Positions 3,763-28,196 of a stretch of DNA of 28,452 nt are shown here, piece by piece. Under the pieces are notes generated by a model, which saw nothing but the letters and a program-made list of their open reading frames with translations, did no database searches and was not told where the DNA came from. The stretch lies in IMG/VR virus record IMGVR_UViG_3300009442_000027, positions 1-28,452 of that record; one strand, written 5' to 3'. How positions within the stretch are numbered: position 1 is the stretch's first letter; every line of letters starts with the position of its first letter. Both the position numbers and the translations under genes were made by a program. This DNA is from a virus. Lineage: Duplodnaviria > Caudoviricetes.

Positions 3763-4008
3763 ATGCCAATGAGTCCGAATCAAAAAAAAGGGATCAAAAA
3801 AAACAAGCTGCTACGCTACAAGGACGTTTTGGACTTATATAATGAAAAAAAAACAGAAGATATTCCTGTAATTGTAATTTGGCGCAAACACATTTACCCA
3901 CGTTTTTACATTTCACGAAAAACACTTTATATAATTCTAGCCACGCCCGTGGTTAAAGAACTCAAAGAAATTGCAGCCATTGAAGAACAGCAGCTTCAGA
4001 TGTTTTAA
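3763..4008 (+). CDS. Small basic HTH-like phage protein, candidate late-gene regulator
   Basis: 81 aa; IWRKHIYPRFYISRKTLYIIL resembles an HTH; it is the last rightward gene before the convergent head operon, where Mu-like phages have Mor/C-type activators. Confidence 0.5.
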   Translation: MPMSPNQKKGIKKNKLLRYKDVLDLYNEKKTEDIPVIVIWRKHIYPRFYISRKTLYIILATPVVKELKEIAAIEEQQLQMF

Positions 4009-4457
4009 ACATCGTTTAAACCACAACTATACGTAATTGTATATTCCTGGACACCATCGTCACGTTTAACCCTCACGCATCCCGTACGAATTAATTTACC
4101 TGCATATACTTCTGGATTAAATCCTTGTAATTTTTTATGAATTTCTTCAATGAGGTCCCAAATGCTCCAAGCATTATCTTTTTGAGTCACTGGCGCTTTT
4201 GCAGATGTATTGGTTAACTTCAAATTTGCAACAGTAAAACTAAACACCGCTTCAGCTTGTTGGCGCTCAATTGGAATTACTTTTTTGTCTCGACCAATGT
4301 TTGAATACTCAGCATTGGTAATATCTATGAGTACACAAGGCCATTGCACAGGAAAATTTGGACTGAAATAGTCTAACTGACCCCAATCTTCATCTACGTA
4401 TTTAAGGTCTGTTAAAGTGGCTAATCTCGTTTGAATGTTTTTAATTAGTGCTTTCAT
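4005..4457 (-). CDS. Tail terminator/completion protein (Mu gp37-like)
   Basis: 150 aa; YVDEDWGQLD...PVQWPCVLID and IHKKLQGF motifs; lies after the gpG-like gene. Confidence 0.65.
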   Translation of the reverse strand: MKALIKNIQTRLATLTDLKYVDEDWGQLDYFSPNFPVQWPCVLIDITNAEYSNIGRDKKVIPIERQQAEAVFSFTVANLKLTNTSAKAPVTQKDNAWSIWDLIEEIHKKLQGFNPEVYAGKLIRTGCVRVKRDDGVQEYTITYSCGLNDV

Positions 4458-5006
4458 CTATTTAAGTTTTTTAAGTATTTCTTTATTAAGATTTTGTAAG
4501 TTATGATCCACTACTTTTTTAATTCGCATTTCAACAGCAGGATCAAAGCCAATGAAACGCCGTTCTTCAATTTTCATTTTAGTGCCGACTTTCATAAGTG
4601 CCATTGCTTTCCATTTAGAAGCTTCAGCAGAAAGTGACCTGTTTCTTTTGGTGTTTGCTGCTTTTTTCTTTCTGACATTAAAAACAACAGCATTGCTAGA
4701 CTTGTAGTGCATGGCCCAGAAAAAGCTTTTCATTTTTGCGGTCACCACAATTTCACCGCCTTCGTTATGAATGCTCGCATAGGGTAAGTTACTACTCCAA
4801 CTGATTTTTCCAGTCTTGGTTGACGATTTTATACTTTTTCTCAAACGCCCTGACCTCAGTAATAGAGATCCTCTACTATTGGCGTGTTTGGTGGTTTTCC
4901 ACTTTTTATTGAAGAAGCTTTTACGCTCAAAATTACGATCAAACGCTTGGGTCAAATCGACTTCAACATCTTTTAAAATTTCGTTTAAAAACGATTTAGA
5001 ATCCAT
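4458..5006 (-). CDS. Virion morphogenesis protein (Mu gpG / tail completion S-like)
   Basis: 182 aa; LLRSGRLRKSI, PYASIHNEGG and RRFIG motifs. Confidence 0.85.
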   Translation of the reverse strand: MDSKSFLNEILKDVEVDLTQAFDRNFERKSFFNKKWKTTKHANSRGSLLLRSGRLRKSIKSSTKTGKISWSSNLPYASIHNEGGEIVVTAKMKSFFWAMHYKSSNAVVFNVRKKKAANTKRNRSLSAEASKWKAMALMKVGTKMKIEERRFIGFDPAVEMRIKKVVDHNLQNLNKEILKKLK

Positions 5007-5021
5007 ATTTAATTTTTTTTG

Positions 5022-5029
5022 TATCTTTG
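5022..5029 (+). promoter_or_regulatory. Bacteroidota -7 promoter element, probably driving a leaderless mRNA
   Basis: TATCTTTG is an exact TAnnTTTG match, 5 nt before ATG 5035. Confidence 0.6.
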
Positions 5030-5034
5030 TTATT

Positions 5035-5271
5035 ATGAGTTTTTCTAATCAAAATCTTAGAGAGTCAACAATTTTTGATTTAACAACAGACCCCAACATT
5101 ATTGTTGGTGAATTTGGTATTTCGGAAACTGCTGATCAGTACAACAAAATTATTTCAATAGAAACTCGAATTAAAGATTTTTTAGACCTCTCAGAACTGA
5201 CAAATGATTCTAAATTAAAAGAAGCAGTTTATAAACAGTTCAAAGAGGAATTACTTGTTTTTGCTTATTAA
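5035..5271 (+). CDS. Small acidic protein antisense to the head operon; candidate immunity protein for the MuF extension
   Basis: 78 aa from ATG 5035, in the frame of track ORF 4816-5271; fills the gap between MuF and gpG and overlaps the MuF 3' end by 21 nt. Confidence 0.6.
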   Translation: MSFSNQNLRESTIFDLTTDPNIIVGEFGISETADQYNKIISIETRIKDFLDLSELTNDSKLKEAVYKQFKEELLVFAY

Positions 5272-6792
5272 TTTTTTATCTAACTTCAATAGCTCACTAT
5301 ACCCATACTCTTCATGCACCAATGCTAAGCGTACAAACTCCGTTACATATTTTTTAGTCAGTTTAGAATTATTTACAATAGCATCAACTAAACCTATTTT
5401 TTGAAAACTATAAGTTTCATTTAATAGATGCTTTTCCACATCTGCCAAAACTTTTGATTTATTAGCTTTACTAAACTTTATTAGTTGATCGTAATTCCTA
5501 ACCATTGTATTATAACCCGTATTACCTCGATCATTCATTAGTTCTGTGTTCTCCAATTTTCCGCCCATAGATTTCATAAACTCTGGCAGGCGTTTCCTGG
5601 ATACAAATTCATTTGCTAATTCCATATATCTAGTGTCTATTTTTGTCAAATCAACATAACCAATTTTGTTTGCATTATGCATAATTTCATGATGTAAGGT
5701 TGAAATTGCTTGTTCTTGTAAATAAGTTGTTTTTCTCCCTTTATTAATATTATTTATTCCACTAATCACTTTATTCATGATTGTTTTTTTCAAATAAATA
5801 TCACCTTTCATGCCCGTATATCCATTAACGCCACGTCTTCGAGTAGTTGTAACATACTTAAATGAACGCGCAAAATAATCAGGGTTTTTCTTCGCAAAGG
5901 ATTTAAAATAGTCAGTTAAATCATCTTCATTCCTAATGGTTTTTGTTTTTTCACTGATCTGTTTTTTCACAGTAGCTTTCACTGCCTTAGCTCCAACAAC
6001 TTTGTTATATGGATGCTTTGGCGGAAAAATCACTTTTTGTTTGGCAGGGTTAAATCGAAAAATAGCTAGTTTGTTTTCACCTTTTTTACCGAGCTTCGTC
6101 GTTGCTTTTTCACCAAGTTCAATTGCTTTCTTTGGATCACTTTTATCATTCAGATAGCTTAAGACCTGGACAACGGTACAACGGCAACGCCACCCATTTG
6201 GCGCAAAATAGGAGTCCCAAAATGGATCGCTTTTTGGTAGTGTAATATCGTGAAGAACTCTGTGACTGTCACGAACCCTGTCATCATTGGCCGTTCGGTA
6301 CTGTAGATAATATTTGTCACCATCTTCAAAGGATTCCCAACGTTCGGCCATTTGCACGGCTCCAACGGCAAAATCATATTCGGCTTCTAAATAATTTTCG
6401 TTATAATTCTTTTTTATTTTCGAAATATCATTAGAAAATTGTGAAAATGATTTAATCGTTTTGTCTTTTGTCAATAAAAGCCTGGAAGCTTCAAAAAGTT
6501 GTGCATGAGTTTTGAGAGAAGAAAATAGAAAAATGTCATTTTCTAATCGGCCAATGAGTTCATTTGAAAGTTGGTTGTCTTTCAGTGTATCATTTAAGAT
6601 TTTAGCCGTTGATCGAATGATTTTTTTGTACTCAGGTACTTTTTCTAAATCTTCTGGCTTGTAAGTTCCTTTTTTGTGCAGCATTTTAAATGCTGTTTCA
6701 ACTGCTTTTAATAACGGTTTAAGGTTATCGGACAATGACAGGTTTAGCGTTTGTTTTTCGTGCTTACAATGGCTGCAACTGCAATCATACAA
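5251..6792 (-). CDS. MuF (Mu gpF / SPP1 gp7-like) minor head protein with C-terminal HExxH metallopeptidase-like extension
   Basis: YRTANDDRVRDSH and PNGWRCRC are MuF motifs; C-terminal HHEIMH plus downstream ELANE. Only a TTG start is available; the frame is open back to 6852. Confidence 0.85.
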   Translation of the reverse strand: MYDCSCSHCKHEKQTLNLSLSDNLKPLLKAVETAFKMLHKKGTYKPEDLEKVPEYKKIIRSTAKILNDTLKDNQLSNELIGRLENDIFLFSSLKTHAQLFEASRLLLTKDKTIKSFSQFSNDISKIKKNYNENYLEAEYDFAVGAVQMAERWESFEDGDKYYLQYRTANDDRVRDSHRVLHDITLPKSDPFWDSYFAPNGWRCRCTVVQVLSYLNDKSDPKKAIELGEKATTKLGKKGENKLAIFRFNPAKQKVIFPPKHPYNKVVGAKAVKATVKKQISEKTKTIRNEDDLTDYFKSFAKKNPDYFARSFKYVTTTRRRGVNGYTGMKGDIYLKKTIMNKVISGINNINKGRKTTYLQEQAISTLHHEIMHNANKIGYVDLTKIDTRYMELANEFVSRKRLPEFMKSMGGKLENTELMNDRGNTGYNTMVRNYDQLIKFSKANKSKVLADVEKHLLNETYSFQKIGLVDAIVNNSKLTKKYVTEFVRLALVHEEYGYSELLKLDKKLISKNK

Positions 6793-6814
6793 GAAGTCTA
6801 AACGACTATGAAAT

Positions 6815-6852
6815 GCCCCAAAATAAACTTCAGGGCTTACACGAAAAAAGGG
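6815..6852 (-). other. Predicted -1 ribosomal frameshift signal (portal to MuF)
   Basis: Overlapping heptamers C CCT TTT (6852-6846) and T TTT TTC (6849-6843), 6-nt spacer, hairpin GCCCTGAAG-ttta-TTTTGGGGC (6836-6815). The -1 frame is the MuF frame. Confidence 0.72.
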
Positions 6853-8099
6853 TCAAGTCCGTCAAGATTTAAACCTAAAGTGTTTTGCTTTGGTGCTTCT
6901 CGTTTTCCGATCACTTCGATGCCGAATTTCTGTTGCAGCCATTCAGGTTTTACATCAAAATATTGCAAGGATTCGCTTGTCATTTTCCAGAGTTGTTCAA
7001 TATCCTCAGTTTGTTCATAGCCATACGTCAATTCACCTTTTAGAACGCCTAAATTAACGAGCGCTGGTATCACGGTTGAGTTCCAGTTTTGCTCTAAAAA
7101 ACGCAAATCGCTATCGATTAACGTTTGAAGCATTTCTTGGCCGCTTTGATCTTTGGATCGGCTTCCATTTTGGGTGTCTTGACCAATGACAGCTCCAGTA
7201 ATTAGTAGCGATATTTGATTGTCACATAAATTAATTAGATTCTTATACACATCTCCGTTCGTATTCACAGATTTAGCCCACTCAAATTCTTCAGATTCGT
7301 CAATAATGAACCAAGCCGCCGCGCCCATGTCCTTCATCATTGTTTCGGCACGCCTGACCATTCCAGGATCTTGTGTATTTGTTTTCATCACTCTCGGAGG
7401 GATGCCGTATATTTCACATAGTTCACTCCAACAGCTTTGTGCAAATCTCTTAAATAGGACATGAGGCACCGCATTATTCAAGAGCCCTAAGTTTCCTTTT
7501 TCTCCAAATTCTAAAAGCCACGTTCCGTATTCGCTTACTTCTCGGTAAAATATTTTTTTGTCCTCACTGTAATCTGGATAGAACGCGCCATTTAAGGGGT
7601 CAATATTATCACGAGGGATTAAATCAACAACCAATTGATCTTCTTTTCCAATTTCTTCACTAAATGAAAATTCGATCAATGAATGAATACGATATTTAGA
7701 GTCCAAAATATGACGATTAATGTCATTCGTAAAAAGTGCATTATTTAGAATTTTTGTTTGTTCTTCATCCACTTCGCCGCTTGGTTTTTTCAAGACGATT
7801 CTTTCAGATAAAGCTTTCAAATTCCTGTTTTTATATTGCGAAGTCAACAAAGCATCTAAAGAGATTTCATCAAACAATTGTTGCAGTAAAAACCATTTTG
7901 GATTTTCTTCCAGTTTTGTCATTCGTAAGGCACGATTCCAAGTTGCAATATCTTGGCGTGTTCTGGATACAGCTTTAGGTGCAACCGTGGCCGCATAATT
8001 AGGGCCTTTGCCTTTGGTTGTTTTGCCATTGGCGGCAAAGGTCTGTTGTTGTTTTTGTTGCGGGGATCTTCTTCTATTTCTATTATTTTTTCGTGCCAT
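6837..8099 (-). CDS. Portal protein (DUF935 / Mu gp29-like)
   Basis: 420 aa; WSELCEIYGIPPRV, ISLLITGAVIGQD and GSRSK motifs; lies between gp36-like and MuF genes. Confidence 0.88.
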   Translation of the reverse strand: MARKNNRNRRRSPQQKQQQTFAANGKTTKGKGPNYAATVAPKAVSRTRQDIATWNRALRMTKLEENPKWFLLQQLFDEISLDALLTSQYKNRNLKALSERIVLKKPSGEVDEEQTKILNNALFTNDINRHILDSKYRIHSLIEFSFSEEIGKEDQLVVDLIPRDNIDPLNGAFYPDYSEDKKIFYREVSEYGTWLLEFGEKGNLGLLNNAVPHVLFKRFAQSCWSELCEIYGIPPRVMKTNTQDPGMVRRAETMMKDMGAAAWFIIDESEEFEWAKSVNTNGDVYKNLINLCDNQISLLITGAVIGQDTQNGSRSKDQSGQEMLQTLIDSDLRFLEQNWNSTVIPALVNLGVLKGELTYGYEQTEDIEQLWKMTSESLQYFDVKPEWLQQKFGIEVIGKREAPKQNTLGLNLDGLDPFFV

Positions 8100-8101
8100 C
8101 T

Positions 8102-8557
8102 CTATTCGTGATTAAATTTTTTTCTTGAACCATAAATAAATGGCTCTCTTTCAATTGCGTCTTCAGAATCGGGATCAAGCGTTGGCAATGTGCTTAAATT
8201 CACTTCACCATTGGCCAATTGTTTTAGCCAATTAATAGCCCGGTCATAACGTTCTTTAGTTTGCTCATAAATCACGTCGGCATTGCACAACTCGACGATC
8301 CACCATTTTGCTATGGTAATGGCGTGTTTTAAAATTAGGGCATTTCTATCAGTTCCAGAAGCCGTAAGAATGGCTTCCACATCATATTGCAGCCTCCCAT
8401 CTAACCATTCTTTTTTGTGGTTTCCTGACAAATAGCTTCTAACTTCTTCTTCAGCTGCTGCCATCGCCACATCTATAATGTCATCATTTCCTTCAGTTAT
8501 CTGTTCTAATTGATAATTGTACATTGTACTTGGTAAATCGGTTTTTTGTAAAAACAT
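8102..8557 (-). CDS. Head-tail connector (DUF1320 / Mu gp36-like)
   Basis: 151 aa; AEEEVRSYL...YDVEAI and RYDRAINWLKQLANG motifs. Confidence 0.85.
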   Translation of the reverse strand: MFLQKTDLPSTMYNYQLEQITEGNDDIIDVAMAAAEEEVRSYLSGNHKKEWLDGRLQYDVEAILTASGTDRNALILKHAITIAKWWIVELCNADVIYEQTKERYDRAINWLKQLANGEVNLSTLPTLDPDSEDAIEREPFIYGSRKKFNHE

Positions 8558-8560
8558 AGT

Positions 8561-10093
8561 TTAAAATCTTCGTGAATCGACGGACCCAAAGGAGTAAGTC
8601 GTTGCTTTTTTTATCATTCTACTTTGAATCAACCAACACGCCCCCTCGAGTGCATCGGGTCCATCCATTACGGTGGATTTTTCGGACACGCCAATCATTT
8701 GATCGTGCATCCGTATCATATTCGGTTCTTCTTTTTCTTTGATGTTAAAAATTAAATTTCCAAGTCGATTAAGCGGCTCCAAAGTGCCTTCAATTCTGAA
8801 GAATTTATCGGGCTTTTTTCGTTTGTCTTCTGTTATTGGAATTGTGAACCCGTAGATGTCTGCTTTTTGATAAATTAAAGGCAACAAAACCTGTTCGTAA
8901 TGTGGACCTTGCAAAGAGTTATTCTCTATCGAAATGCGTTTGGTATCGACGTTGTTTTCTTTTAAAAACAAATAGGCTTCATAGAGCCAATCTACAAATT
9001 TAGCGTTGCTCGTTTGTTCGACCCAAACCTTATATACATACCGTTTGCGGCCTTTAGAACCTACTATCACTACAGATTTATGGGAAGCTTGTTTATTGCG
9101 ACCTCTGTCTTTGTTTGAGGTCGAAGGATCTGCATATACGATCACTTGGTCACAAGTTGATAGTTTAGGGCATTTGTTGTAGGTTAATTCCTTAAACGTA
9201 TCGCCTTCAGAAATGGGATTGTTAAAGTATTCTTTTTGTTGAGCGCTCCACGGTATTTTTGAAAGAACCCGATCGATCAGTTTTTCAGTGTTTTTTTGTG
9301 GCCACGAGCTTTTGCCATCTTTATTGCGAATGTTAATTATATCGTGTTTGTCAGCTACTTTGGCCATTTCTGTAATGCAACAATATTTTGCTATGATGTT
9401 CCCACAAGCGAGCCACAAAAGAGGCTCAGAAATCGAGCGACAGGCATAGAGAGCTTCCATCACCCACTTCACCATTGCTTTGACTCTGTCTGGATTTCGA
9501 CAGGCTTCGTCGCTGTCTATATCGTCAGGAATGATAATATCAGGCCTCACAGCATCGTTTCTGGTCCCTCTGGGGTTTTGCCCTTCTCCAATGGCTCTAA
9601 ATGAAGCTCTGTATTTTGTAACAAATTCACCTGCCTCCCATTTATTGCCAATGGACATCTGATCGCCATAATCATTAATAATTCTGTTGTTTGATTCAAG
9701 CTCTGTTTTGTAGGGCAATAACAAGCGTTTGGCGTTGTCAAATGTGCTTGAAACCATCAGTACATTTTTCTTTTTCTTTGTAAGAATTAGAAAAAACACT
9801 ATGATCATAACGGTCACTGATTTGCCAAGCTCCCTTGACCACGAAACAACCTCGTACCACTCTGGATTTTTAAGAACTCGTTTGAATAAGTTTTTTTGAA
9901 AGGGTGCAGAATCGTGTGTGCAGTAGTGTGGAAAATAGTATTTTTTCCATTCTTCAGGAAATTTTTCTAAATGGGCAATCCGTTTTTGTTTTTCACTGGG
10001 TGTTTCGCTTAGATTAATAGGCGTTGCCTTTGCCGTATTGTCACGGTACTGATTCCAGAGTTTTAAATATTTACGATCTTCAACCGTGCCCAT
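8561..10093 (-). CDS. Terminase large subunit
   Basis: 510 aa; Walker A-like SRELGKS, Walker B IIPDDID, nuclease acidic motifs YADPS and DGPDALEG. Confidence 0.88.
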   Translation of the reverse strand: MGTVEDRKYLKLWNQYRDNTAKATPINLSETPSEKQKRIAHLEKFPEEWKKYYFPHYCTHDSAPFQKNLFKRVLKNPEWYEVVSWSRELGKSVTVMIIVFFLILTKKKKNVLMVSSTFDNAKRLLLPYKTELESNNRIINDYGDQMSIGNKWEAGEFVTKYRASFRAIGEGQNPRGTRNDAVRPDIIIPDDIDSDEACRNPDRVKAMVKWVMEALYACRSISEPLLWLACGNIIAKYCCITEMAKVADKHDIINIRNKDGKSSWPQKNTEKLIDRVLSKIPWSAQQKEYFNNPISEGDTFKELTYNKCPKLSTCDQVIVYADPSTSNKDRGRNKQASHKSVVIVGSKGRKRYVYKVWVEQTSNAKFVDWLYEAYLFLKENNVDTKRISIENNSLQGPHYEQVLLPLIYQKADIYGFTIPITEDKRKKPDKFFRIEGTLEPLNRLGNLIFNIKEKEEPNMIRMHDQMIGVSEKSTVMDGPDALEGACWLIQSRMIKKATTYSFGSVDSRRF

Positions 10094-10650
10094 TATTTTA
10101 ATTTTAAGTTGATGAAACCATCAAAAATTGGAATCAATGTTTTGTATAAATCAAAATCTTGTGGCTTTAGGTAATCCAAAAAGCTCGTGGTGACTTCATA
10201 AACTTCAGCTAGTGAAGTTTCTGTTTCGAGCTGTTTGATCGATTTTGTTAGGACCGCTATTTGGTTGGCTTCTTTTGAAGTTGCAAAATTTCCAATTTTA
10301 ATGGGATAATCTGAATCTGTATAAGATGGGTATGACAAAAATTCATTACCATCTTTATCTTTCAATTTTGTGCCCTTTAATAGATGGGTTGGAATTTCAT
10401 AAGTAATAGGGCGCGTTCTTATATTATCATTCAAACTTTCGAGCTGGTCATACAGATCTCGAACCATTTTTTGACGCGTTACCATAAGTGACTTGCGAAG
10501 TTTTTCCCAATTACCCTTTTTAATCCATGTAGATATGGTGTTAGGTCGTACATCAACACGCTCAGCTATTTCTTTATTAGTCAACTTTTGAGACGTATCC
10601 AAGTACAGCATTTTCGCATAATCTTCAGCAGATTTTTTCTTAAGGCCCAT
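10093..10650 (-). CDS. Putative terminase small subunit with N-terminal HTH
   Basis: 185 aa; KEIAERVDVRPNTISTWIKKGNW HTH; coupled to the large terminase by a TAATG overlap. Confidence 0.72.
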   Translation of the reverse strand: MGLKKKSAEDYAKMLYLDTSQKLTNKEIAERVDVRPNTISTWIKKGNWEKLRKSLMVTRQKMVRDLYDQLESLNDNIRTRPITYEIPTHLLKGTKLKDKDGNEFLSYPSYTDSDYPIKIGNFATSKEANQIAVLTKSIKQLETETSLAEVYEVTTSFLDYLKPQDFDLYKTLIPIFDGFINLKLK

Positions 10651-10829: not shown

Positions 10830-11804
10830 ATGCCAAAAAAGAAAAAGACTTTTATTTTTAATGATGAAGCTGTAATTAATAGTTATGGCTTCGTTATTCC
10901 TACTTCTGGAATCAGTTTAAGTCGTTTCAAGAAAAACCCTGTTATGCTTAATTCTCATTATGCAAGTAACAGTAATGTACTTGGCAAATGGGAAAATGTG
11001 AAAAAGGAAAAAGGCGTTCTTACAGGGAATCCCATTTTTGACAGTGAAGATGAAAATGTCACCACTATTGAAGGGAAAGTTGATCGTGGTTTCATAAATT
11101 CATGTTCTATGGGCGTGTCTTTTAATCGTGAAGATTTATCTTTCATAAACGACCAATTGGTACTTAAAAAATGTGAACTATACGAGGTTTCAATAGTACC
11201 GATCCCGAGTAACGCTAATTCGATTCGCTTGTATGCGTCCGAAACTGGTGAACTTATTAAGGAAACAGAAATACAAGAGCTTTGCCTCTCTTTATCGGCT
11301 GTTGATCCAAAAAAAACCACACCTGAAAAAAATCAAAACTCAAAAGAAAATATGAAAATTACATTAACCAGCGTAGCAGCTATTGCCTTGGGCTTTGCCG
11401 CTACCGAATTAGAACATGATGCTGCTGATGTCAATGCAAAAATTGTTGCATTGAACACCGAAAAAACGGCCGCACAATTGGCACTGTCAACGATTAAGAC
11501 GGCTCAGGAAGCTGAAAAACTTACAGCGATCAAAGCTGAAGTTGATTTGGCTTTGAAGTCAGGTAAAATTGCAGCAAATAAAGTTGAAGAGTTCGTTAAC
11601 TTAGGAATTGCCAATTCAACACTATTAACGTCAACTTTAGCTAGTATTCCCGCAAAGGCTTCTTTAGCTGCATTGGTTGAAGGGAATGGCAATACTGAGG
11701 TTAAGACCCCAGAGGATTTCCAAAAGTTATCACACGATGCTCAGTTGGCTTTCAAAGCTGAACAACCTGACGCGTACAAATTATTATTCACTTCTAAAAA
11801 ATAA
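10830..11804 (+). CDS. Prohead protease (HK97-type) with C-terminal scaffold
   Basis: 324 aa; NPVMLNSH, SCSMG and LYEVSIVPIPSNANS protease motifs; Ala-rich helical C-terminal half from an internal Met at 11352. Confidence 0.88.
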   Translation: MPKKKKTFIFNDEAVINSYGFVIPTSGISLSRFKKNPVMLNSHYASNSNVLGKWENVKKEKGVLTGNPIFDSEDENVTTIEGKVDRGFINSCSMGVSFNREDLSFINDQLVLKKCELYEVSIVPIPSNANSIRLYASETGELIKETEIQELCLSLSAVDPKKTTPEKNQNSKENMKITLTSVAAIALGFAATELEHDAADVNAKIVALNTEKTAAQLALSTIKTAQEAEKLTAIKAEVDLALKSGKIAANKVEEFVNLGIANSTLLTSTLASIPAKASLAALVEGNGNTEVKTPEDFQKLSHDAQLAFKAEQPDAYKLLFTSKK

Positions 11805-15691: not shown

Positions 15692-16105
15692 ATGGCATTC
15701 AATTCAAGACAATACGAGTGGGCGGATCTTACTTTAATATTAGGAGGTCGTGACATTATAGGCATTCGAGCCGTGAAATATACAGAAAAAATTGAAAGGG
15801 AGGCGGTCTATGCAAAAGGGCGTGAACCTCATTCGATTCAAAGCGGCAACATTGCCTATGAAGGTGAAATCATGGTTCTTCAGAGTGAATATGAAGCATT
15901 GGTTAAAGCAGGCAAAGGTTCTGTTTTAAGCTTAAGCCTCGACGCCTTATTTGCTTACGGAAATCCTTCTAATGGTGATGCAATCACCACTGACCGATGT
16001 TCAGGAATTAGATTTACTGAAGCCGCAAAAGATATTAAACAAGGTGACAAATTTCAAGAAATTGCATTGCCATTTGTTTGCCTTAATATTAAAAACCAAG
16101 CCTAA
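15692..16105 (+). CDS. Tail tube protein
   Basis: 137 aa; FNSRQYEWAD and YAKGREPHSIQSGN motifs; follows the sheath. Confidence 0.8.
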   Translation: MAFNSRQYEWADLTLILGGRDIIGIRAVKYTEKIEREAVYAKGREPHSIQSGNIAYEGEIMVLQSEYEALVKAGKGSVLSLSLDALFAYGNPSNGDAITTDRCSGIRFTEAAKDIKQGDKFQEIALPFVCLNIKNQA

Positions 16106-16398
16106 TGTTTACAGCTACAGAAGATCAAATTAAAAATTGGAAAAAAGAACACGGTGATGTTTTTAAATTCAAATCAGAAAAACACGGAAAGGCTGTTTAT
16201 TGCAGAAAACCGAAGCGAAAAGAAATGAGTTTTGTGAGTACGATTAAAGATCCTTTGAAATTCAATGAGGCACTTTTGAAAGCCTGTTGGTTGGATGGTG
16301 ACGCTGAAGTATTGACGAATGAAGATATTTTCTTAGGGATGTCCGCAGAAGTTTCTCTGCTTTTGGAGTTTGCAAAAATAGATGTGGAAAAGCTTTAG
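16105..16398 (+). CDS. Tail assembly chaperone (gpG-like)
   Basis: 97 aa between tube and tape measure; ends GTG GAA AAG CTT TAG. Confidence 0.78.
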   Translation: MFTATEDQIKNWKKEHGDVFKFKSEKHGKAVYCRKPKRKEMSFVSTIKDPLKFNEALLKACWLDGDAEVLTNEDIFLGMSAEVSLLLEFAKIDVEKL

Positions 16399-27547: not shown

Positions 27548-27579
27548 CAAATATATAGTTATGAATAAATATCACCAAA
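27548..27579 (-). promoter_or_regulatory. Bacteroidota consensus promoter, antisense to the ThyA-like gene
   Basis: -33 TTTG (27579-27576), 20-bp spacer, -7 TATATTTG (27555-27548). Confidence 0.68.
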
Positions 27580-28196
27580 TGCTTAGTGACATTTTAAAAA
27601 ACGGCAAAACCCAAACTAACAAGAAAGGGATTATTAAATATCTTTTAAATAAGAAATTAACGTTGAAAGCAATTGATCTGCTCGAGGTTTTCGAGGGGCA
27701 TCCTATGGCACGTAAGAAGCTCAAAGATGAGCTCAATCTCTTTATGGTGGGAGAACGAATGACAGAGGCGTATCGTGAAGTAGGAATCACTTGGTGGGAT
27801 TATTGTGGTCCTATACTGGTGAACTCTTACCCGACCTATTTTGAGCAATTGCCAACCTTAATAAAGAAAATCAACCTTGAGAAGCGCAGCAGTAAGAATT
27901 ACGTAATGTTCTTGGGAGCGACGAACCAGGAGAGTAACCAGCAGCCGTGCCTGTCGCTCATTCAGTTTCAAATTGAAAAAGGTAAGTTGATCATCAGTGC
28001 CTACCAACGCAGCTCGGATGCTTCGCTTGGCCTCCCAGCAGATATTTATCACTTGTACTTAATCAGTAAACAGATCAAGTTGCCACTCAAAAGCATTACG
28101 TTGTTCTTGGGAAATGTACACTTATATAAGAATAATATCAAGCCCACTAAGGCGTTACTGAAAGGGAGACAGGCTAAATTTAGTTTGAATGTATAA
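27561..28196 (+). CDS. Compact thymidylate-synthase-family protein with dCMP-type Asp (putative dCMP methylase/hydroxymethylase)
   Basis: 211 aa; catalytic PC (QQPCLSLIQF), YQRSSD, GNVHLY. RSSDASLGLPAD aligns to E. coli ThyA RSCDVFLGLPFN with D in place of N177. Confidence 0.8.
   Translation: MNKYHQMLSDILKNGKTQTNKKGIIKYLLNKKLTLKAIDLLEVFEGHPMARKKLKDELNLFMVGERMTEAYREVGITWWDYCGPILVNSYPTYFEQLPTLIKKINLEKRSSKNYVMFLGATNQESNQQPCLSLIQFQIEKGKLIISAYQRSSDASLGLPADIYHLYLISKQIKLPLKSITLFLGNVHLYKNNIKPTKALLKGRQAKFSLNV

Follow-up and report, generated by a model that had tools for sequence, protein, structure and literature searches.

Organization of the portal-MuF junction

The window examined here comprises positions 1 to 28,452 (28,452 nucleotides, nt) of the virus record IMGVR_UViG_3300009442_000027 (Duplodnaviria; Caudoviricetes), and the element under study is the junction between its portal gene and the MuF reading frame that follows. 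The window holds a Mu-like head and tail module with a minus-strand block (TerS, TerL, gp36 adaptor, portal, MuF and neck) and plus-strand genes for the prohead protease, capsid and tail. Named homologues point to a host among the Flavobacteriaceae. The portal gene (6837-8099, minus strand) encodes, as its 0-frame product, a Mu-type portal of 420 amino acids (aa) and 48.2 kDa, which passes the cut-off of the PF06074 profile (E = 2e-65), matches phrog_113 and resembles the portals of Mu and JBD30.

On the minus strand the 3′ end of the portal gene reads GAC CCT TTT TTC GTG TAA. It contains the slippery heptamer T TTT TTC in the phase of the portal frame (6843-6849), the predicted -1 site, followed by a 6-nt spacer with the portal stop codon at its end (6837-6842) and a predicted stimulatory hairpin, GCCC...GGGC (6815-6836). 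An earlier note on this DNA had placed a 9-bp hairpin six nt beyond the heptamer; the spacer and the hairpin are both found, with a minimum-energy fold of 8 pairs around a 6-nt loop (-10.6 kcal/mol). The z-score of the hairpin is -2.75 over 33 nt, but -0.4 over 91 nt. No terminator and no Rfam family matched the hairpin region, and both identities were rejected.

The last stop codon of the -1 frame (TGA, 6853-6855, minus strand) lies directly upstream of the slip site; in relatives it lies a median of 7 codons upstream. As the note had described, the frame opens after this TGA and runs without a stop into MuF, from 6852 to 5251 (minus strand, 533 codons), and it contains the PF04233 domain. 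The -1 extension proper (5251-6843, minus strand) is 530 aa long and comprises a conserved N-terminal segment with CxC/CxxC motifs, the MuF domain and a C-terminal domain. Fusion to the portal would give a product of 949 aa, the size first estimated, and about 109.5 kDa. A TTG codon (6790-6792, minus strand) is likely taken by gene callers as the start of MuF. In the reading frame counted from this TTG, the first internal Met is residue 37 and not 38 as noted before. The junction sequence is identical in two loci (L001 and L002), and the portal of a third record (L168) is 100% identical; the three may be related samples.

Conservation of the frame, the heptamer and its codons

Loci of relatives came from four overlapping sets of confirmed loci, one used in full (7 loci) and three represented by their best 80 of 142, best 80 of 314 and best 80 of 243; copies of this phage are among them. 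In total, 246 loci were classified. MuF lies in the -1 frame relative to the portal in 234 of these. By portal cluster the counts are 134/141 at 90% identity, 68/72 at 70% and 36/39 at 60%. The other loci comprise seven in-frame fusions, two with MuF in the +1 frame, one with a deletion and two truncated ones. The split arrangement recurs throughout these 134 clusters, at portal identities as low as about 46%. The earlier expectation for related portals was borne out: they end in TTTTTT(C/T) followed by a hairpin, with the -1 frame used for MuF in 134 of the 141 clusters.

A canonical heptamer in phase within the last 8 portal codons is present in 130 of the 134 clusters, against about 4% expected. 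The exact heptamer T TTT TTC accounts for 119, T TTT TTT for seven, A AAT TTT for two, and C CCT TTC and T TTT TTG for one each. The remaining four clusters have either T TTT TTT ten codons before the stop or N CTT TTT, with a hairpin after each. The stop codon follows the heptamer by 3 nt in 121/130. The second, overlapping heptamer of the original description, C CCT TTT (6846-6852, minus strand), exists in this phage, but a heptamer with an upstream XXX occurs in only 7/130 and it was rejected as a working slip site. The heptamer, spacer and hairpin that the note had read as a -1 signal are therefore conserved for T TTT TTC and not for its upstream neighbor.

At the protein level, the penultimate residue is Phe in all 120 homologous proteins among the matches listed, 109 of which end in FFx, and F418 of the portal is invariant in 36 aligned portals. 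The codons are fixed as well. Where the portal ends with a Phe-Phe pair (126 cases), TTT always encodes the first Phe (background 74%) and TTC encodes the second in 119 (background 26%), and the wobble base preceding the pair is T in 126/126 (59.7 expected). TTT-TTC is used at 3 of 32 internal Phe-Phe pairs. Selection on protein cannot fix synonymous positions, and this terminal codon lock therefore speaks for a constraint on DNA; judging from these alignments, that is where the constraint at the portal end acts.

Some variants were seen beside these forms. Seven loci (L250, L253, L452, L457, L458, L475 and L444) have A-rich heptamers at the portal end (A AAA AAA/G/T or G GGA AAG) with MuF in the -1 frame, and the hairpin there is often weak or absent. 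In L246 (about 4128-4165) a deletion takes the 3′ arm of the hairpin and puts MuF in frame 0 past the stop; its close relatives L065 and L221 are intact. Three loci at first classed as +1 (L337, L338 and L382) were left out, as their MuF frames may be broken or their class mistaken.

A conserved hairpin downstream of the heptamer

Folded in 45-nt windows, the sequence at the heptamer end averages -15.7 kcal/mol and the flanks -5.3 to -7.4 kcal/mol, and z is below -1 in 120 of 130 junctions. A stem of at least 6 pairs starts exactly at +6 nt in 120/130, whereas the same criterion is satisfied in 17/130 at +4, 10/129 at +30 and 23/129 at +60. The 70% level leaves 61 stems, in which the second pair is C-G 46 times and G-C 15 times and the third is C-G 45 times and G-C 13 times. 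The GCCC and GGGC arms are thus swapped among relatives in a compensatory manner, while the loop varies greatly in length. Because of this variation, a MAFFT alignment of 55 junctions mis-paired the arms and was dropped. Covariation was counted instead by an anchored stem search in which the best partner is chosen, and the control offsets were added to account for that bias.

Coding potential of the -1 frame

No stop separates the heptamer from MuF in the -1 frame of any of the 130 junctions; in one of them (L086) this frame closes after 156 codons. The first ATG of this frame lies at a median of codon 93 and falls within 20 codons in only 12 of 125. Residues ahead of it are conserved in 124 aligned extensions: F8 in 86%, H12 in 85%, L15 in 80%, Y19 in 97% and C23 in 87%. 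Aligned from its first residue over 295 aa, the -1 extension of the window shares 54% identity with what follows the portal in P0146, a fusion encoded by a single open reading frame.

Natural in-frame fusions

A search for longer portal homologues returned 89 proteins, 88 of which contain a MuF domain, and Phe-Phe is present in a crude junction window of 82 of the 89. The family phrog_35074 likewise matches both portal and MuF. Twelve of 13 distinct fused DNA junctions keep a T-run and a stem 6 nt later (7 nt in L018), the run being T TTT TTT in ten, T TTT TTC in one and G CTT TTT in one; the distant fused junction L426 has no stem. The -1 frame of these twelve junctions closes after 19-41 codons, and slippage at these sites would yield a short portal. 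Nine fused loci (L061, L206, L218, L340, L341, L343, L355, L359 and L366) carry T TTT TTT, the split forms mostly T TTT TTC, perhaps because the fused forms require more frequent slippage.

In a FastTree phylogeny that covers 118 portals and has Mushu as its root, the fused forms are scattered over five positions among the -1 forms, with L426 lying outside these, which suggests repeated flips between split and fused states. In a locus of Flavobacterium covae (L018, about 4655-4700) the run counts seven T and portal and MuF form an in-frame fusion of 722 aa, and its sister L103 has six T; L018 may be a recent change or an assembly error. Both L018 and P0146 read like the predicted transframe product, and both could be homopolymer assembly errors. 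In the model of the fused homologue P0122, a portal fold is followed by a linker of low confidence (397-442) that spans the junction and leads into MuF, with 8rka and 9knu as the best matches of the fused model.

Distribution among phages and prophages

Eight of 71 named phage records were examined. Hankyphage p00 and TCUEAP3 have T TTT TTC, 6 nt, a stem and MuF in the -1 frame. In the records fF4 and Peternella the heptamer is an A-run and MuF again lies in the -1 frame; a stem is present in fF4 and absent from Peternella. Portal and MuF are fused in Porphyromonas phage007a, and lotta8-1, FPSV-S1 and Mushu have a separate MuF with an ATG in the +1 frame. Within the hankyphage group (26 distinct junctions among the best 80 of 152), 79 loci are of the -1 type with heptamer and stem and one is cut off.

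In the phylum of genome G001, PF06074 was found in 53 of 401 genomes. Sixty loci were drawn from 64 matches, with G001 included. Six were missed by the profile, 28 had no MuF in view, one ran off, and the remaining 25 contain portal and MuF. Of these 25, 15 are of the -1 type (the heptamer being present and the frame open in 11), five have MuF in the +1 frame, four have it in frame 0 and one is fused. Relatives in which MuF has its own start lack the signal and show mixed frames. The idea that MuF is always in the -1 frame in Bacteroidota Mu-like portals therefore holds in part: by these comparisons the slip signal marks a large clade and not all such portals.

Interpretation and alternative explanations

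We consider it likely, from comparative sequence evidence, that the signal at the portal end directs a programmed -1 ribosomal frameshift. This reading draws on the signal, its phase and conservation, the open and conserved -1 frame and the natural in-frame fusions, all of which are observed. Several results weigh against it or limit its support. The loci are best-scoring matches and kin by descent, so that their counts are not independent and nominal P values are given no weight. The window contains 55 heptamers, in any frame, with a stem of at least 7 pairs 5-7 nt downstream, and the portal site ties for second by energy among them; the single-window signal is weak for this reason, and it is the comparison with relatives that lifts it above chance. 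Upstream Shine-Dalgarno-like stimulators (GGAG/AGGA/GAGG) are a feature of bacterial frameshifts of the dnaX/IS3 type, and one occurs in only 11/130 junctions. L205 and L210 keep the T6 run and the hairpin, yet MuF is in the +1/-2 frame. In these two loci (about 1880-1915 and 4230-4265, respectively), which are sister to a fused clade, the portal frame reads CTT TTT TCG, and a +1 or -2 variant is possible. The codon at the position of TTG 6792 is TTG in 31 of 90 Leu codons, about twofold the Leu background of 18%; ATG, GTG or TTG precedes the conserved Tyr in 64/105 loci versus 45/122 in a control stretch; and an ATG lies close to the portal stop in 60 of the 79 loci of the hankyphage group, the other 19 having none. 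Finally, PMC12135933 reports hankyphage MuF peptides from the 85-30 and 30-10 kDa gel fractions besides the 250-85 kDa fraction. That source also places small proteins such as the adaptor in the 250-85 kDa fraction, in a search that used annotated proteins, and the fractions are non-discriminating because small proteins smear into the high-mass one. Its S6 Table gives 20 peptides for the hankyphage portal and three for MuF.

The start-codon counts would suit independent synthesis of MuF, in which ribosomes re-initiate at TTG 6792 or some other weak start past the portal stop, or translation is coupled there and the hairpin tunes the coupling; so would the ATG-started MuF of lotta8-1, FPSV-S1 and Mushu. 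We regard this as unlikely. No ATG, GTG or TTG precedes the conserved Tyr in 41/105 loci, the position of TTG 6792 holds TTG in 31/105 and another Leu codon in 59/105, and the fixed frame, the codon lock and the presence of the signal in in-frame fusions, far from stops, would all be left unexplained. Slippage of RNA polymerase on T6, with one extra U, would give the same fusion without ribosomal frameshifting, and most sites are indeed homopolymer runs, those of the fused forms mostly T7. Yet the non-homopolymer heptamers A AAT TTT and C CCT TTC serve at 3/130 junctions, the run is always in codon phase and the hairpin is fixed 6 nt 3′ of it. Efficient polymerase slippage, moreover, takes runs of about 9 or more, longer than T6, and we judge this explanation very unlikely.

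Even less can be said for a portal that simply needs its C-terminal Phe-Phe, with a hairpin serving RNA processing or stability and a frame relation inherited by accident. The invariance of F418 and the conserved L-x-L beside it (see below) would fit such a protein motif, but the synonymous lock (126/126, 119/126 and 126/126) and the 3/32 count at internal pairs, the lack of a terminator or Rfam match at the hairpin and the often start-less MuF make this highly improbable. The suggestion that a sequencing error or an inactivating deletion broke a fused gene takes some color from the existence of in-frame fusions and from L018, one T off the usual form; it is refuted by the recurrence of the same split in 134 clusters, and we give it next to no weight.

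A model for frameshifting and MuF loading

Under programmed -1 frameshifting, the hairpin that begins 6 nt past the heptamer would stimulate two tRNA-Phe to slip in tandem on U UUU UUC. The 48-kDa portal would remain the main product, and a minority of ribosomes shifting to -1 would make the 949-aa, 109.5-kDa fusion as a minor one. Shifted subunits would lose the last portal residue and gain the 530-aa extension of MuF plus peptidase, with a predicted transframe junction peptide that ends FFR, not FFV, and continues VSPEVYFGAFHSR. The fusion would be built, together with the short form, into the portal of 12 subunits, and its MuF part would lie in the head interior. At an efficiency of 10-20%, a binomial over 12 subunits predicts a mean of 1.2-2.4 copies, with 28-7% of portals empty. 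The fusion would thus set a mean number of MuF copies and not, as the earlier note had it, fix the stoichiometry. These 1.2-2.4 copies are near the 1-2 copies per capsid given for SPP1 gp7, which binds the portal, in PMC5576092.

The slip site lies some 30 residues beyond the region aligned to the Mu and JBD30 portals. The Mu portal loses a C-terminal part to the prohead protease, and the solved Mu portal chains model 369-383 of 512 residues. The crown and wing of the JBD30 portal remain inside the head, according to the text available from PMC11445458, and in this phage too we infer that the portal tail faces the head interior. An L-x-L motif in the portal tail, 1-5 residues before Phe-Phe (6864-6878, minus strand), is a speculative candidate protease site. 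L-x-L occurs ahead of the slip site in 78/130 tails versus 13/130 shuffled tails and 11/520 portal-body 15-mers; downstream of the junction a control stretch is as high (72/98 vs 79/98). Motifs similar to L-x-L are also present in the protease/scaffold.

The prohead protease/scaffold (10830-11804, plus strand; PF04586, E = 3e-6) is a candidate for releasing MuF from the portal. We speculate that it might later cut the linker modeled with low confidence, so that MuF and its effector could exit with the DNA. The tether of the effector to the portal ring, proposed earlier as such, may thus be cut during head maturation; delivery of the MuF cargo would need such cleavage. More tentatively, in Bacteroidota transposable phages, hankyphage included, a reversible recoding switch at the C-terminus of the portal might load the effector: a few of the 12 subunits would arise joined to MuF and an exchangeable effector, the prohead protease would release this cargo within the head, and lineages would have flipped repeatedly between slips that give the fusion and slips that give the bare portal, with the hairpin kept at 6 nt.

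The MuF cargo and neighboring genes

The MuF domain (6172-6444, minus strand; PF04233, E = 4e-13) is SPP1 gp7-like and matches phrog_220 and phrog_324; no solved MuF relative was found by sequence comparison. The C-terminal domain (5254-5958, minus strand) contains HExxH with a Glu 19 residues on, and H90, E91, H94 and E113 are invariant in 24 homologues, which were chosen for HExxH. Its model has a mean predicted local distance difference test (pLDDT) score of 92.9. The leading VIA matches are M1 aminopeptidases, dipeptidyl peptidase III (DPP III) and thermolysin, the best being an M1 aminopeptidase (Z = 8.6, root-mean-square deviation 4.8, 196 aligned residues), and no Foldseek match was obtained at E<=0.001. 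From motif and model, the domain is predicted to be a gluzincin-type metallopeptidase. Complete extensions exceed 380 aa in 78/117 relatives, and HExxH is present in 31 of the 78. The tails of these long extensions match ADP-ribosyltransferase, CdiA_C, papain-fold, LPD3, PBECR2 or other families, or have no match; by this comparison the C-terminal domain is interchangeable, and the peptidase is one of its several forms.

A small acidic convergent open reading frame (5035-5271, plus strand; 78 aa, pI 4.4) overlaps the MuF stop. Its homologues sit beside the same peptidase family, and its sequence co-varies with the C-terminal domain. Such a small frame lies beside 52/74 long and 10/38 short MuFs. 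Polymorphic toxin genes of the MuF type have a cognate immunity gene adjacent, and 5035-5271 is a candidate for an antisense-oriented immunity gene. Hankyphage also has a small reading frame at that place.

Hankyphage shares two further features with the window: the terminase-portal-MuF-neck block (4005-10650, minus strand) is inverted with respect to the protease, capsid and tail genes from 10830 onward (plus strand), an identical layout, and a thymidylate synthase-like gene lies at the right end (27561-28196, plus strand). Elsewhere in the window, a likely tail assembly chaperone gene (16105-16398, plus strand) ends G GAA AAG CTT TAG, with a slip candidate at 16386-16392, and its -1 frame is open, lacks an ATG and extends up to the tape measure gene. 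Read from the sequence, this is probably a second frameshift, of the G/GT type.

Comparison with known systems

If programmed frameshifting operates here, the portal would become one of the few phage genes known to be subject to programmed recoding. The making and low-copy packaging of a start-less MuF would be accounted for, and MuF would be mis-annotated in many Bacteroidota phages and prophages, with a wrong start and as a separate protein. The inverted relatives offer a natural pair for how the heptamer (TTC versus TTT) sets efficiency. PMC12135933 describes hankyphage as inducible in a laboratory strain of Bacteroides, which makes both the frameshift claim and delivery of the MuF effector directly testable. 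Our literature search found no portal-MuF frameshift, and subscription journals and the supplements of frameshift surveys, which lay outside it, may bear on novelty. The frameshift passages it returned concern tail chaperones, reverse transcriptase or spanins (PMC8008677, PMC7761591, PMC10367356, PMC7911831, PMC4493119 and PMC2628397, among others, as far as their available text goes).

The portal slip site does not lie in the gene before the tape measure, unlike that of the tail assembly chaperone G/GT. Slippage by -1 in E. coli dnaX causes early termination, so that tau and gamma supply one ring-shaped complex with subunits of two lengths. The in-frame relatives would resemble this logic; the heptamer here, however, is U-rich, no upstream Shine-Dalgarno is conserved and the gene is a structural one of a phage. 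In T7 10A/10B and similar cases, a fraction of the subunits of a virion oligomer carries a C-terminal extension that decorates the outside, whereas the extension predicted here would face the head interior. Lambda G/GT and TP901-1 gpG/gpT, in the passages available from PMC4493119, likewise have X XXY YYZ near the end of a morphogenesis gene and give a short major and an extended minor product from one start. The present case differs from them in its portal gene, its MuF-effector extension, its conserved 3′ hairpin with swapped arms and the inverted logic of some lineages.

Single-open-reading-frame portal-MuF(-PBECR) proteins are described as in-frame fusions in the portions consulted of PMC5512222 and PMC7302621. 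They have the domain order of the predicted transframe protein, indicating that such a chain is tolerated. As published there they are plain, with no portal frameshift, whereas the Bacteroidota ones keep the slip signal (12/13 junctions). The MuF polymorphic toxins of PMC5576092 likewise have a MuF domain right after the portal gene and variable C-terminal domains. There MuF is a separate protein, and the word frameshift has 0 occurrences in the available text; here, MuF and its effector would be loaded covalently, as part of the portal itself.

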